Shown: in pieces, positions 5,283 through 9,722 of the stretch
How positions within the stretch are numbered: the stretch's first letter is position 1
Layout of the letters: every line of letters starts with the position of its first letter
Assembly (NCBI RefSeq): GCF_054482525.1
Contig: NZ_CM137006.1
Reading direction: 5' to 3' (one strand)
Length of the DNA stretch: 64,000 nucleotides
The notes under the pieces: model-generated
Databases searched by the model: none
Seen by the model: the letters and a program-made list of their open reading frames with translations, nothing else
What the model was told of the DNA's origin: nothing
Program-made: the position numbers and the translations under genes

Positions 5283-5642
5283 ATGCGTATAGAGTTTGTT
5301 TTGCCTTATCCGCCGACGGTGAATACTTACTGGCGACGTCGTGGCAACACATATTTTGTATCAAAAGTCGGTGAGCGTTATCGCCGTGATGTGGCACTAA
5401 TTGTTCGCCAGCAGCGGTTGAAATTAAACCTGTCCGGAAGGCTGGCAATAAAAATTATTGCAGAGCCACCGGATAAGCGCCGCCGCGACCTGGACAATAT
5501 CCTGAAGGCACCACTGGATGCGCTGACGCATGCCGGACTTCTCATAGACGACGAGCAGTTTGATGAAATCAATATTGTGCGCGGACTGCCTGTTCCTGGT
5601 GGTCGGCTGGGGATAAAAATCACAGAACTGGAGTGCGCATGA
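5283..5642 (+). CDS. rusA: Holliday junction resolvase RusA
   Basis: 119 aa; LPYPPTVNTYW, RRRDLDNILKAPLDAL and GGRLGIKITELE align with RusA as recalled. Confidence 0.8.
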   Translation: MRIEFVLPYPPTVNTYWRRRGNTYFVSKVGERYRRDVALIVRQQRLKLNLSGRLAIKIIAEPPDKRRRDLDNILKAPLDALTHAGLLIDDEQFDEINIVRGLPVPGGRLGIKITELECA

Positions 5643-6328
5643 ATAACCAGTATTTACAGTTTGTGCGTGAGCAGCTCATTATCGCCACCGCTGATTTGAG
5701 TGGGGCAACAAAAGGTCAGCTTGAAGCCTGGCAAGAGAATGCCATGTTCGATACAGGGCGTTACAGGCGAAAAAAAATCCGGTACCGCGATGAAGTGACT
5801 GGAAAAATGATAACGCGGGATAATCCACCAATCCCGGGAAAGCAATCGCTGGCGAAGGGGACGTCAATTCCTCTGGTCAGTCCGGTTGAGTTTTCGACAT
5901 CATCGTGGCGGCGGGCTGTTTTGTCTCTTGAAGAACATCATAAAGCCTGGTTGTTGTGGTGTTACAGCGGGAGTATTTGTTGGGAATATCAGATCGCGAT
6001 AACACAGTGGGCGTGGAATGAATTTAATACTCAATCCGGTACCAGAAAAATTGCAGGGAAAACGCAGGAACGCCTGAAAAAATTAATCTGGCTGGCGGCG
6101 CAGGCAGTAAAAGCAGAACTTTTTGGTGGGGAAGGTTATGAATACCAGGAGCTGGCATTACTGGCGGGAGTGACAACTAAAAACTGGTCCAAAACATTTA
6201 CTCGTCACTGGGTTGCAATGAAACACATTTTTCACCGACTTGATAGTGAGGCTTTATTGTTTGTAATGAGAACACGTTCAAAACAAAAGGCGGCATTTTC
6301 AAAGCAAAGTATTGCAAAAGTAGATTGA
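5633..6328 (+). CDS. Putative late-gene antiterminator (Q-like)
   Basis: 231 aa directly downstream of rusA and upstream of a terminator, tRNA cluster and lysis genes; assignment by position only. Confidence 0.45.
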   Translation: MRMNNQYLQFVREQLIIATADLSGATKGQLEAWQENAMFDTGRYRRKKIRYRDEVTGKMITRDNPPIPGKQSLAKGTSIPLVSPVEFSTSSWRRAVLSLEEHHKAWLLWCYSGSICWEYQIAITQWAWNEFNTQSGTRKIAGKTQERLKKLIWLAAQAVKAELFGGEGYEYQELALLAGVTTKNWSKTFTRHWVAMKHIFHRLDSEALLFVMRTRSKQKAAFSKQSIAKVD

Positions 6329-6393
6329 AAGGCATATATTTCATGCAAATCTGATATTTTGCCGATTTTGTACGTGATGGCAAAAGCAAACAA

Positions 6394-6418
6394 AACCCGC
6401 CCACAAGCGGGTTTTTTG
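6394..6418 (+). terminator. Rho-independent terminator downstream of Q-like gene (tR'-like)
   Basis: aacccgcccacaagcgggtt hairpin followed by tttttt. Confidence 0.55.
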
Positions 6419-6484
6419 TGCCACTTATCTCGGATAGACATGGTGAATGCGCTAGTGGAGGAGATAAGGGTGATTTTTGAATGC

Positions 6485-6522: not shown

Positions 6523-6598
6523 GGCCCTTTAGCTCAGTGGTGAGAGCGAGCGACTCATAATCGCCAGGTCGCTGGTTCAAATCCAGCAAGGGCCACCA
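6523..6598 (+). tRNA. tRNA with CAT anticodon (Ile2/Met-type)
   Basis: 76 nt cloverleaf ending CCA; anticodon loop CTCATAA; close to E. coli ileX as recalled. Confidence 0.7.
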
Positions 6599-6599
6599 G

Positions 6600-6676
6600 C
6601 CGCCACTAGCTCATCAGGAAAGAGCGTCAACCCTTTAAGTTGAGTGTGCGAGGTTCGAGTCCCCGGTGGCGGTCCA
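6600..6676 (+). tRNA. Atypical tRNA-like gene (anticodon loop CCTTTAA, UUU with C33); possibly non-canonical or pseudo-tRNA
   Basis: 77 nt; acceptor CCGCCAC/GTGGCGG plus T-CCA; D-arm GCTC/GAGC; T-loop TTCGAGT; one A-C mismatch in T-stem. Confidence 0.4.
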
Positions 6677-6678
6677 GT

Positions 6679-6754
<76 letters not shown>

Positions 6755-6757
6755 TAT

Positions 6758-6832
<75 letters not shown>

Positions 6833-7037
6833 GTTAGAGTCTTTCAGTCTGCGATGATGGGAAATCCCGGAGTGACTGAAAGACGTTTAAGTTATGAATG
6901 ATCGCTTTTTTTGCAAAATTGCTGTGCAGAAATACTAACCTTCGGGCAGGCGATCATTCATAAGCACTCTGCTTTTATTCCGATTAACTGTGGGTGGTTT
7001 GTTGGATAGAGTGCTTCCCTTACTGTATATATCGTTT

Positions 7038-7063
7038 CGCCCGCTTTTGCGGGTTTTTCTTTT
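7038..7063 (+). terminator. Rho-independent terminator between tRNA cluster and holin
   Basis: gcccgcttttgcggg hairpin followed by a T-run. Confidence 0.5.
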
Positions 7064-7123
7064 CAAATCCCTTTCATTTCTCAGTGTAAAACTACGCCAT
7101 CCGTTATTTGCGGAGGTGAGGCT

Positions 7124-7339
7124 ATGAAATCCATGGACAAAATTTCAACGGGCATTGCCTACGGCACCTCCGCAGGCAGTGCTGGCTACTGGTTTTTACA
7201 GTGGCTTGATCAGGTCAGTCCGTCACAGTGGGCTGCGATTGGTGTACTGGGGAGTCTGGTTCTGGGCTTCCTGACTTATCTGACAAATCTGTACTTCAAA
7301 ATCAGAGAAGACAAGCGTAAGGCTGCACGGGGAGAGTAA
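7124..7339 (+). CDS. S: Class II holin (phage 21 S-like pinholin)
   Basis: 71 aa; [26 protein letters not shown]... with dual-start MKSM; matches S21 as recalled. Confidence 0.8.
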
Positions 7340-7343
7340 TTCA

Positions 7344-7694
7344 ATGACTCAAAACTATGAACTGATTGTGAAAGGGATCCGCAATTTTGAGAATAAAGTT
7401 ACGGTAACTTTAGCGTTACGGGACAAAAAACGCTTTGACGGCGAAATTTTTGACCTGGACATCTCGCTGGACCGTGTTGAAGGTGCCGCGCTGGAGTTTT
7501 ATGAGGCAGCAGCCAGAAGGAGCATCAGACAGGTCTTCCTGGATGTTGCTGCCGGGTTATGTGAAGGGGATGAGCAGTCGCCGGAAAAGCGCCCCGTAAT
7601 TTTAGAGGCGCAGAATGTGTGGATAACCTACAAAGGAAAGCTACCAGGAAGAATTACTGGTTCTCTGAAGACTCCTCCGGAATCACAACCTTAA
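7344..7694 (+). CDS. Hypothetical protein between holin and endolysin (YdfR/DUF1327-like by position)
   Basis: 116-aa ORF 4 nt after the holin stop; Qin prophage has ydfR in the same position. Confidence 0.4.
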   Translation: MTQNYELIVKGIRNFENKVTVTLALRDKKRFDGEIFDLDISLDRVEGAALEFYEAAARRSIRQVFLDVAAGLCEGDEQSPEKRPVILEAQNVWITYKGKLPGRITGSLKTPPESQP

Positions 7695-7757
7695 GTCACT
7701 GACCGGAACAGATAAACCTGTCCGTGGGCAGAAACCGATAAATCCTGATAAATATCC

Positions 7758-8291
7758 ATGAACGCAAAAATCAGATACGGCCTGTCGGCTGCCGTTCTGG
7801 CACTGATTGCCGTCGGTGCGCCCGCGCCTGATATTCTCGACCAGTTTCTGGATGAAAAAGAAGGTAACCACACAACGGCATACCGCGATGGTTCCGGCAT
7901 CTGGACCATCTGTCGGGGTGCCACGATGGTGGATGGAAAACCCGTTTTTCCCGGTATGAAACTGTCGAAGGAAAAATGCGACCAGGTCAACGCCATTGAG
8001 CGTGATAAGGCGCTGGCATGGGTGGAGCGCAATATTAAAGTACCACTGACCGAACCACAAAAAGCGGGTATCGCGTCATTTTGTCCCTATAACATTGGCC
8101 CCGGTAAGTGTTTTCCATCGACGTTTTATAAGCGGCTGAATGCTGGTGATCGTAAGGGCGCATGCGAGGCGATTCGCTGGTGGATAAAAGATGGTGGGCG
8201 CGATTGCCGCATACGTTCAAATAACTGCTATGGACAGGTTATTCGTCGTGACCAGGAAAGCGCATTAGCCTGTTGGGGAATAGATCAGTGA
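7758..8291 (+). CDS. R: SAR endolysin (T4-lysozyme-like, GH24)
   Basis: 177 aa; N-terminal hydrophobic signal-anchor-release stretch; catalytic motif [16 protein letters not shown]. Confidence 0.8.
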
Positions 8292-8755
8292 GCAGAGTCG
8301 CCGCGATTATTTATGCTCTGGTTATCTGCATCATCGTCTGCCTGTCGTGGGCGGTCAATCATTACCGTGATAACGCCATCACCTACAAAGAACAGCGTGA
8401 TAAAAAAGTCAGTGAGCTGAAGCAGCTGACCGCCACCATCGCTGACATGCAGCAGCGTCAGCGTGATGTTGCTGCGCTCGATGCAAAGTACTCGAGAGAA
8501 TTAGCCAATGCGAAAGCTGAAAATGAAACTCTGCGCGCTGATGTTGCCGCTGGTCGTAAGCGCCTGCGGGTCAATGCCAGTTGCTCCGCAGCCGTGCGTG
8601 AAGCCACCGGACCCACCAGCGTGGATAATGCAACCAGCCCCAGACTGGCAGACACCGCTGAACGGGATTATTTCACCCTCAGAGAACGGTTGATGACGAT
8701 GCAGAAGCAACTGGAAGGGGCACAGCTATACATTCGTGAGCAATGTCTCAGATAA
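8273..8755 (+). CDS. Rz: Spanin inner-membrane subunit (Rz-like)
   Basis: N-terminal TM segment, coiled-coil body, overlaps endolysin 3' end; Rz1 ORF embedded in +1 frame. Confidence 0.6.
8508..8693 (+). CDS. Rz1: Spanin outer-membrane lipoprotein (Rz1-like), embedded in Rz
   Basis: 61 aa; lipobox LVVSAC; proline-rich mature part. Confidence 0.7.
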
Positions 8756-8910
8756 AAACCGGCCAAGGATAATCCGCTAAAGATTCGCCGGTGGCGAAAG
8801 AGAGCCAAGGTGTCAACCTACGCTATTACTTATGATAATGCAACAGACGAAGCGGGACATATTGGCGCATAACAAATCAGTGCAGGCTAACTGCAGGAAG
8901 AACTTAGGGC

Positions 8911-9177
8911 GTGAACGTAGAAAACCTAAGTAACGCACATTACATCTATAACGAGATGAAAGAGCTACAGCGACAGAAAGGTATACTGGAAAGTGGTGCA
9001 GGGCTTGGTGTGACAATCCAGTCTGCCTATCAATATAGTGCTTTTCTTGAGGCCATACGCCCGCATGCAGTTGCTGAACTTAACAGCCGTATTGAGGAAA
9101 AGAAATCCGCGCTGGTTAATTTGGGTGCTTCCTTCTCTATATACGAGCATAATAAGGCGGGTTGGAAACCCGCCTAA
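8911..9177 (+). CDS. Hypothetical protein
   Basis: 88-aa ORF after Rz; ends in a bidirectional hairpin (ggcgggtt..aacccgcc, about 9152-9176). Confidence 0.35.
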   Translation: MNVENLSNAHYIYNEMKELQRQKGILESGAGLGVTIQSAYQYSAFLEAIRPHAVAELNSRIEEKKSALVNLGASFSIYEHNKAGWKPA

Positions 9178-9182
9178 AGCAC

Positions 9183-9722
9183 TTAGAAACTGCGTGGAGC
9201 TGTGGAAAGAATGGATGCCAGTTCTTCCTTCGATAAATCCCAGCTTCGATTTACAGCGTCAATTTTCTTAAACTCATCAAGCATTGCGTTATAGAGATGT
9301 TCTGTACGTGAATGAGTATTGGCAATGGGCTGTTTCTGTTCGGGGAAGCGATCAATTTTCTGATATGCCTCAATGATACTGAAGTAATCGCATTCATTAT
9401 TACCGTCGAAACCTGGGAGCTGAATTGCCCCATCATGTATTTTTAGATGATGGTCACGGACTAATTCTTTTTGCTCGTCATCACTAAGTTTCCTGAAAGC
9501 ATTGGAAAGTCCGCGATACATATTCAAGACAGCAGTAACAAAATCACGATCTTCTTTACTTGGTTCATCAACATCCAAATGTGAATATTCGGCCTTCATA
9601 ACCCAACCATTACCAGATGACACAGCATATTTAACAAGCTGTGGATCAATATCAGTTTCGATACCTAGGTGGATGGCAATGTCACATAACAAAATGGTAT
9701 TGATTTTATCTTTAATATCCAT
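9183..9722 (-). CDS. YfbU-family (UPF0304-like) protein, antisense to phage late genes
   Basis: 179 aa; by-eye alignment to E. coli YfbU as recalled (..NMY..L, GFD, THS, LSKEELASI); only credible minus-strand gene in the prophage part. Confidence 0.5.
   Translation of the reverse strand: MDIKDKINTILLCDIAIHLGIETDIDPQLVKYAVSSGNGWVMKAEYSHLDVDEPSKEDRDFVTAVLNMYRGLSNAFRKLSDDEQKELVRDHHLKIHDGAIQLPGFDGNNECDYFSIIEAYQKIDRFPEQKQPIANTHSRTEHLYNAMLDEFKKIDAVNRSWDLSKEELASILSTAPRSF

Follow-up and report, generated by a model that had tools for sequence, protein, structure and literature searches.

A phage-21-type lysis cassette in an Escherichia coli lambdoid prophage carries ydfR, a gene that may encode an accessory cytoplasmic protein

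The DNA analyzed here, a stretch of 64,000 nucleotides that we call the window, contains at positions 7124 to 8755 what is almost certainly a phage-21-type lysis cassette, in which the gene ydfR lies between the holin and endolysin genes. We propose that the product of ydfR is an accessory, late-expressed cytoplasmic protein that possibly acts on RNase E or RNA, and we put the probability of this reading at roughly 60%. The arrangement of the cassette is already known, annotated and extremely common, being a textbook set of pinholin, SAR endolysin and spanins, and as a lysis cassette it offers nothing new. Its residual value is ydfR, which is among the most widespread uncharacterized prophage genes of E. 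coli and is situated inside a well-understood and easily manipulated operon.

The list of open reading frames and the raw sequence gave five genes on the plus strand, with the same coordinates as in an earlier sequence-only reading of this DNA, and each product was assigned to a Pfam family:

7124-7339, plus strand: holin, 71 aa; PF04971, Phage_holin_2_1 ('P21 holin S'), E 1.4e-35
7344-7694, plus strand: ydfR, 116 aa; PF07041 (DUF1327), E 7.5e-43
7758-8291, plus strand: rrrQ-type endolysin (R), 177 aa; PF00959, Phage_lysozyme, E 1.4e-24
8288-8755, plus strand, GTG start: Rz i-spanin, 155 aa; PF03245, Phage_lysis (Rz), E 1.6e-49
8508-8693, plus strand, embedded in Rz: Rz1 o-spanin, 61 aa; PF06085, E 1.4e-18

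The Pfam scores of all five products far exceeded the curated cut-offs, and the PHROGs assignments of the cassette genes concurred with those of Pfam. Over positions 7000-8800, many complete E. coli chromosomes, among them that of Ecol_545 (NZ_CP018976), had the same sequence as the window (100% identity), as did Escherichia phage vB_EcoS-689R5 (ON470583). RefSeq labels the identical DNA as 'class II holin family protein', 'YdfR family protein', 'rrrQ lysozyme' and 'lysis protein' (for Rz), while Rz1 is called in only some of these records and is absent from most. Judged by its sequence, the window represents a lambdoid prophage of E. coli. The identity of the cassette rests on the family matches, the sequence features of the products, the homology of R to the solved R21, and the way in which RefSeq annotates identical DNA. 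The sequence-only reading had proposed a pinholin, a SAR endolysin and an embedded spanin pair, and the family searches, the sequence features and the RefSeq annotation all agree with that proposal.

The holin matched PF04971 with 121.5 bits (cut-off 26), covering 63 of the 64 profile positions, and belonged in PHROGs to phrog_9876 and phrog_20 (holin). Its sequence opens with M-K-S-M, with Met1 at 7124 and Met4 at 7133, which is a predicted dual start for an antiholin (Met1) and a holin (Met4); an S21-type holin with such a start had been called from the letters of the DNA, and both the family match and the two methionines bear this out. The first transmembrane domain (TMD1, residues ~8-27) is weakly hydrophobic (KD 0.16, 60% G/A/S/T), TMD2 (residues ~36-57) is hydrophobic (KD 1.44), and the C-terminal tail is basic. 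We assigned this protein to the class II holins of the phage 21 S family, and it is a predicted pinholin.

The endolysin gene starts after a 63-nt spacer 3' of ydfR. The SAR stretch that had been proposed at the N-terminus of its product was found as an 18-residue, weakly hydrophobic SAR-like segment at residues 7-24 (nt 7776-7829), of which 50% is Gly, Ala or Ser, and it is preceded by the basic residues K4 and R6 in a basic N-terminus (MNAKIR). Each candidate A-x-A site in the N-terminus is followed by Pro, and the SAR-like segment is predicted to escape cleavage by signal peptidase. The catalytic residues have the spacing E35-x8-D44-x5-T50. The protein is homologous to the R21 structures 3HDE and 3HDF and to the RrrD structure 4ZPU (E ~1e-16); the match to R21 covers residues 31-174 (E 4e-16), and the SAR sequences of the two proteins differ.

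The GTG codon at 8288 overlaps the endolysin stop (caGTGA), with a product that opens with MSRVAAII, and is likely the true Rz start, as RefSeq also annotates it; the TTG at 8273, which appeared in the ORF-finder listing, is a less likely start than this GTG. Rz (phrog_13) has an N-terminal TMD (residues 4-18, KD 3.2) and cysteines at positions 99 and 153. The start of Rz1 (phrog_3198) is offset from that of Rz by 220 nt (8508 minus 8288), which places Rz1 wholly within Rz in the +1 frame, as the earlier reading had it. Rz1 has a lipobox (VVSA/C) with Cys20 and a further Cys at position 30, and 11 of the 42 residues of its mature part are Pro. The embedded +1 arrangement of Rz and Rz1 is the lambda architecture (PMC6139136).

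The lysis steps of this cassette can be outlined from family membership, sequence features and what is established for phages 21 and lambda. Translation from Met1 would yield the antiholin and translation from Met4 the holin; this S21-type pinholin would accumulate in the inner membrane, trigger and depolarize it. Once the membrane is depolarized, the SAR endolysin tethered in it would be let go into the periplasm, refold there and degrade the wall, and the Rz/Rz1 spanin complex would then disrupt the outer membrane. Pinholins operate with SAR endolysins, as is known from the phage 21 work of the Young laboratory.

Upstream of the cassette, the window contains the following elements:

5633-6328: antiterminator gene Q
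6312-6340: pR'-like promoter, next after Q
~6396-6420: hairpin of a short terminated leader, after the pR'-like promoter
6523-6832: four tRNA genes, between the leader and the holin gene
7039-7054, plus strand: second, strong terminator-like hairpin (GCCCGC-TTTT-GCGGGT, then a T run), 70 nt 5' of the holin gene

This layout, running from Q through the pR'-like promoter to the terminators, makes the cassette the first protein-coding block of the Q-dependent late operon; genes for an HNH endonuclease, terminase and head proteins lie 3' of it. The hairpin at 7039-7054 had a predicted fold of -11.5 kcal/mol (z -3.7), with none of 200 shuffled sequences equally stable, and it is probably an intrinsic terminator that is read through by Q-modified RNA polymerase. 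We observed no excess of RNA stability over shuffled sequences at the holin dual start (z -0.7) or in the spacer between ydfR and R (z -0.6), and an Rfam scan returned just the tRNAs and a sub-threshold isrK match; we claim no regulatory RNA in the cassette. Two minus-strand open reading frames that run across R (7683-8060 and 7691-8032) were set aside as spurious, given that the gene in which they lie is coding and strongly conserved.

The cassette resembles those of phage 21 (S21-R21-Rz-Rz1) and DLP12 (essD-rrrD-rzpD/rzoD) in its holin family (PF04971, with MKSM), its SAR lysozyme with an E-x8-D-x5-T triad and its embedded spanin pair, but differs from them in having an rrrQ-type endolysin with a different SAR sequence and a DUF1327 gene between S and R. 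With Qin of E. coli K-12 it shares the gene order essQ-ydfR-rrrQ, including an rrrQ-type lysozyme and the 4-nt spacer that follows the holin gene, so the position that the sequence-only reading had given to the inserted gene, that of ydfR in Qin, proved correct. However, K-12 YdfR is a protein of 103 aa with another C-terminal part, and its stop codon overlaps the rrrQ start; furthermore, the Qin spanin (rzpQ/rzoQ) is of DUF2514, whereas that of the window is a lambda-type Rz/Rz1.

The product of 7344-7694 had been put forward as a candidate for DUF1327, without an assigned role. The search against this family was positive (145 bits against PF07041, cut-off 25), and DUF1327 was the sole Pfam match. 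PHROGs placed YdfR in phrog_406 and phrog_2091, both of which are listed as function unknown, NCBIfam had no model for the 116-aa protein, and the identical protein in RefSeq, WP_000193280.1, carries the name 'YdfR family protein'. The lack of an assigned role holds still, although data linking K-12 YdfR to RNase E now exist (PMC13232886).

YdfR is acidic (pI 5.6), and with a maximum 15-residue KD of 0.9 it has no transmembrane segment; lacking a hydrophobic segment, it is therefore expected to be soluble and cytoplasmic. AlphaFold2, run on a 21-sequence alignment, predicted a core at residues 1-73 (pLDDT ~90) that consists of antiparallel strands (5-14, 18-27 and 34-43) and a helix (50-73), followed by a tail at residues 76-116 that is predicted to be disordered (pLDDT <50) and holds the conserved module RPVILEAQNVWITYKGKLPGRITGSLKTPP. 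No informative fold match was found for YdfR.

DUF1327 is a tiny family, with 65 representatives, mostly fragments and fusions, among 1.84 billion proteins at E <= 0.001. YdfR was found in 101 phage records, which were coliphages without exception, and the family is essentially confined to lambdoid phages of Escherichia and Shigella. The only large match, a 3128-aa protein with six repeats (P0162) that was 32% identical over ~50 residues, was rejected, as its match looks like repeat-amplified chance similarity. Within E. coli, ydfR-like DNA was present in 4301 of the 5426 complete genomes, in 8343 copies and with up to eight per genome, and the gene is also carried by inducible, plaque-forming phages. 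Residues Y5, E6, L7, G47, Y53, E54 and A57 were kept in homologues down to 31% identity, and these conserved core residues, together with dN/dS values well below 1, argue that YdfR is a real, functional protein.

Two features describe how ydfR is fitted into the cassette:

7328-7335, plus strand: Shine-Dalgarno-like GGGGAGAG, within the last holin codons
7680-7730: variable slot, 51 nt here, between the GSLKTPP codons of ydfR and the conserved R leader

The purine-rich sequence GGGGAGAG is the only Shine-Dalgarno sequence for the gene 3' of the holin gene, which in the window is ydfR and, where ydfR is lacking, R. In such ydfR-less cassettes, for example that of the Stx2a phage P13374, R begins 5 nt past the S stop and uses GGGGAGAG, and the junction ...cggggagagtaaNNNNATG is common to the window, mEp460, YYZ-2008 and P13374. 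The spacer between the holin gene and ydfR was an invariant 4 nt (placing the ATG 5 nt past the holin stop) in every E. coli locus examined, namely the window, mEp460, YYZ-2008, Chlobot, Evi, three long-form chromosomal loci and Qin. The endolysin leader in the window, ataaatcctgataaatatcc, is AU-rich and has no Shine-Dalgarno sequence.

At the other end of ydfR, homology to a long-form locus (L010) stops at position 7679 of the window and restarts at 7731, which is 27 nt 5' of the R start. The slot in the long-form locus is 489 nt long, with a 176-aa YdfR and a small antisense open reading frame, and that in phage Chlobot is about 290 nt long. In related cassettes these larger slots (290-490 nt) hold the codons that lengthen YdfR to 176/183 aa, a small convergent gene, or both. 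YdfR is modular. Its core is found by itself in a 72-aa form, joined to the RPVILEAQ...GSLKTPP module in forms of 114/116 aa, extended further by a coiled-coil module in forms of 176/183 aa, or fitted with an unrelated tail in the K-12 protein (103 aa) and in others of 206 and 287 aa; the extra C-terminal modules of the longer variants had no Pfam annotation.

Several comparisons bear on whether YdfR is part of the lysis machinery. An S21-type holin was present in 438 phage records and YdfR in 101 (about 23%). The holin of mEp460, where ydfR is present, has 100% protein identity to the holin of mEp332, where the holin gene directly precedes an RrrD-type endolysin gene, and in P13374 an rrrQ-type SAR endolysin gene directly follows S. 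With an identical holin working without it, ydfR is accessory in S21-type cassettes. The most distant YdfR homologues, with cores 31-39% identical, are encoded among tail genes, one (L006) between I and J and the other (L007) between M and L. These tail-located homologues are just two, from one contig each; tblastn searches with them found the same E. coli phage genes only, and their contigs had no close match among phage records.

The evolutionary rates of the cassette genes also differed. The dN/dS of ydfR was 0.28-0.40, as compared to 0.06-0.11 for S and 0.02-0.09 for R, so that ydfR evolves fast and under much weaker constraint than S or R; in addition, its C-terminal modules are swapped among the length variants. 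Among the window, mEp460 and Chlobot, dS was 0.02 for the ydfR core and ~1.0 for S, which points to a recombination boundary at the S/ydfR junction and to recombination of ydfR independently of S. Based on the accessory spread, the ydfR-less S/R pairs, the tail-located homologues, and this relaxed and independent evolution, we consider that YdfR probably lies outside the lysis machinery. The strict post-holin site, the 4-nt spacer and the common Shine-Dalgarno sequence would also be explained by a role linked to lysis. If YdfR is a passenger of the cassette, lysis timing may well ignore the loss of ydfR without the gene being non-functional.

The sole functional data on K-12 YdfR come from an RNA Biol 2026 paper (PMC13232886), in which a two-hybrid screen recovered YdfR three times. 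A two-hybrid signal was obtained with RNase E 1-597, the N-terminal catalytic half of the enzyme, and the first 72 residues of YdfR sufficed for the interaction; furthermore, Rne1-598-FLAG co-eluted with Strep-YdfR, and the eluate held DNase-resistant nucleic acid, with RNA co-purifying, although in the authors' view a contaminant might have been what bound the RNA (PMC13232886). The RNase E data derive from overexpressed, tagged constructs, and full-length YdfR gave a two-hybrid signal with one Rne construct only. Overproduction of YdfR was non-toxic and altered few transcripts, and ydfR was almost unexpressed in K-12 under standard growth (PMC13232886). The RNase E-interacting segment 1-72 coincides with the confidently folded, conserved core, and this core alone is common to the K-12 and window proteins (59% identity over the aligned stretch). 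We regard RNase E or RNA as a tentative target of YdfR, with the balance of probability lying against it. That paper also refers to the envelope screen of Paradis-Bleau, which lists the ydfR Keio mutant. Because the stop codon of ydfR in Qin overlaps the start of rrrQ, polarity of the mutant's kan resistance cassette on this SAR endolysin gene would be the obvious alternative explanation for the CPRG phenotype of the mutant.

Another reading of YdfR is that it regulates lysis timing from the cytoplasm, binding the pinholin at its basic C-terminal tail or the SAR endolysin at its short, basic cytoplasmic N-terminus and thereby delaying or sharpening triggering. Such a role would fit the place of ydfR next to S, with which it is translationally coupled and co-expressed in all of the E. 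coli loci examined, and the acidic nature of YdfR in relation to the basic holin tail and the basic R N-terminus. It also has a precedent in an extra phage protein that acts on basic residues of the cytoplasmic stub for SAR endolysin release (PMC9239132). Small, extra lysis-encoded proteins comparable to such a regulator are T4 RIII, a cytoplasmic antiholin (PMC8385771), and, working in the opposite sense, the Mu releasin gp25 (DUF2730), which acts on the cytoplasmic side (PMC9239132). However, releasin has an N-terminal transmembrane domain, whereas YdfR has no membrane anchor, and we rejected YdfR as a Mu-type releasin on its lack of a hydrophobic segment and on DUF1327 being its sole Pfam match. 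Searches of Pfam, PHROGs and NCBIfam gave no sequence relationship of YdfR to releasin DUF2730 or RIII, and no match to lysis-regulator families. As the identical holin and this endolysin type serve in cassettes that lack ydfR, distant homologues are located in tail clusters, and overexpressing the K-12 gene caused no growth phenotype, we consider a regulator of lysis timing to be unlikely, though more likely than either of the two readings that follow.

One of these is that ydfR acts in cis, its insertion parting R from GGGGAGAG and so lowering endolysin translation, or uncoupling it, relative to that of the holin, with the protein itself mattering little. It is true that ydfR takes the GGGGAGAG site that R uses in ydfR-less cassettes, and leaves R with the leader ataaatcctgataaatatcc and its lack of a Shine-Dalgarno sequence. 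However, purifying selection (dN/dS 0.28-0.40) has kept the reading frame open among variants that have diverged by 60%, the YdfR core is predicted to fold confidently, and in Qin the overlap of the ydfR stop with the rrrQ start makes coupling possible, all of which render a cis effect improbable. Slightly less probable still is that ydfR is a decaying or selfish remnant, functionless for phage or host. The selection on ydfR is relaxed in comparison to its neighbors, databases hold many truncated, frameshifted and fused variants, and expression is nearly absent in K-12 under standard growth, all of which would be expected of a remnant; but its dN/dS is well below 1, it occurs, often in multiple copies, in 4301 of the 5426 complete genomes of E. 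coli, as well as in inducible, plaque-forming phages, and its core residues are conserved down to 31% identity.

We therefore return to YdfR as an accessory, late-expressed cytoplasmic protein. According to this model, ydfR would be translated from the Shine-Dalgarno sequence in the last holin codons to yield a soluble protein with a beta3-alpha core and a disordered tail. This protein would be a 'moron' with a cytoplasmic rather than an envelope role, for which the cassette serves only as a place to be expressed late. Like the lambda-type morons bor and lom, ydfR is accessory, polymorphic in its presence or absence, and located between conserved late genes, and it is found at different sites in different phages, with mosaic boundaries on its flanks. 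Unlike morons of the bor/lom type, it lies on the late-operon strand with no evident promoter of its own, so that it is probably expressed late and not from the prophage. Binding to RNase E would mean that RNA decay is modulated late in infection. A bolder proposal, which we hold to be more doubtful than RNase E or RNA as a target, is that the DUF1327 core makes up the forward half of a small mobile late-operon module, sometimes with a convergent partner and a shared hairpin terminator, whose product is an effector of RNase E or RNA decay.

The gap in the function of YdfR is genuine but modest, and either outcome, a role in RNA decay or one in lysis, would be of moderate, specialist interest. 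Should YdfR prove to set the timing of the pinholin, it would represent a cytoplasmic lysis regulator of a new type. If instead the binding of RNase E is real and relevant to infection, YdfR would offer a tractable system for a phage-encoded modulator of RNA decay. Under the mobile-module proposal, the lysis cassette would be a landing site only, and the effector would be made when the lysis genes are expressed; if this is true, a widespread coliphage modulator of RNase E, present in ~80% of E. coli genomes, would join the few that are known.

The slot from the ...GSLKTPP codons near the 3' end of ydfR to the leader of the endolysin gene R is an insertion hot spot, as seen when the window was compared with the chromosomal locus carrying a long form of ydfR (L010) and with the related cassette L004.

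Window 7680-7730: variable slot, from the ydfR ...GSLKTPP codons to the R leader (compared with L010 2837-3325 and L004 2341-2632)

The small minus-strand genes that occupy this slot vary by cassette (phrog_2572, phrog_2411 or phrog_25324), and the C-termini of YdfR likewise vary. The last of these genes accompanies DUF1327 at two loci.

L005 (phage Evi) 2001-2667: DUF1327 gene and partner
L007 (metagenome contig SRR29674549_869) 449-1152: DUF1327 gene and partner

At both, a GC-rich hairpin separates a 72-aa DUF1327 gene from the convergent gene of ~100 aa (phrog_25324) that comes after it. The partner proteins share 61% identity, whereas the DUF1327 genes of the same two loci share only 31%; part of the region upstream of phrog_25324 is also conserved between them. 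The module occupies the holin/endolysin gap in Evi and the tail gene M/L gap in L007, and the two genes together appear to make up a mobile moron. The phrog_25324 partner is absent from the window. The search for remote homologues also returned P0162, a metagenomic repeat protein of 3128 aa with six matches to YdfR residues 7-58 (32% identity, summed E 4.8e-8), which is probably a chance similarity amplified by the repeats.

The surroundings of the lysis genes contain the following features.

Window 6312-6420: pR'-like promoter and terminator hairpin (+ strand hairpin)
Window 6523-6832: four tRNA genes, between antiterminator Q and holin
Window 8911-9177: small hypothetical ORF
Window 9183-9722, minus strand: YfbU-family gene

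The promoter (TTGCAA-17-TATATT) lies at the Q 3' end, and the strong terminator downstream of it (acccgc-ccacaa-gcgggt, then TTTTTTG) would yield, with it, a leader of ~70 nt analogous to lambda 6S RNA; in this interval Rfam matched isrK weakly and below threshold (22.7 bits vs a gathering score of 50). The tRNA genes have the anticodons CAT (tRNA-Ile in RefSeq, Met according to ARAGORN), Lys-TTT, Thr-TGT and Gly-TCC, and because of their position between Q and the holin they fall within the late transcript. The YfbU-family gene and the small ORF, which lie in the gap from the spanin genes to the HNH/terminase genes, are a further moron-like late-operon insertion.

The envelope-leakiness (CPRG) hits listed in the supplements of PMC3879167 include the Keio ydfR mutant. 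In K-12 Qin (L014, 6055-6366) the stop of ydfR and the start of rrrQ, the gene for the SAR endolysin, overlap, so this hit could be due to polarity of the kan cassette.

Window 7738-7757: R leader, AU-rich, ataaatcctgataaatatcc

This leader contains no Shine-Dalgarno sequence; in cassettes that lack ydfR, R is served by GGGGAGAG within the last holin codons. Insertion of ydfR may thus shift the S:R translation ratio.
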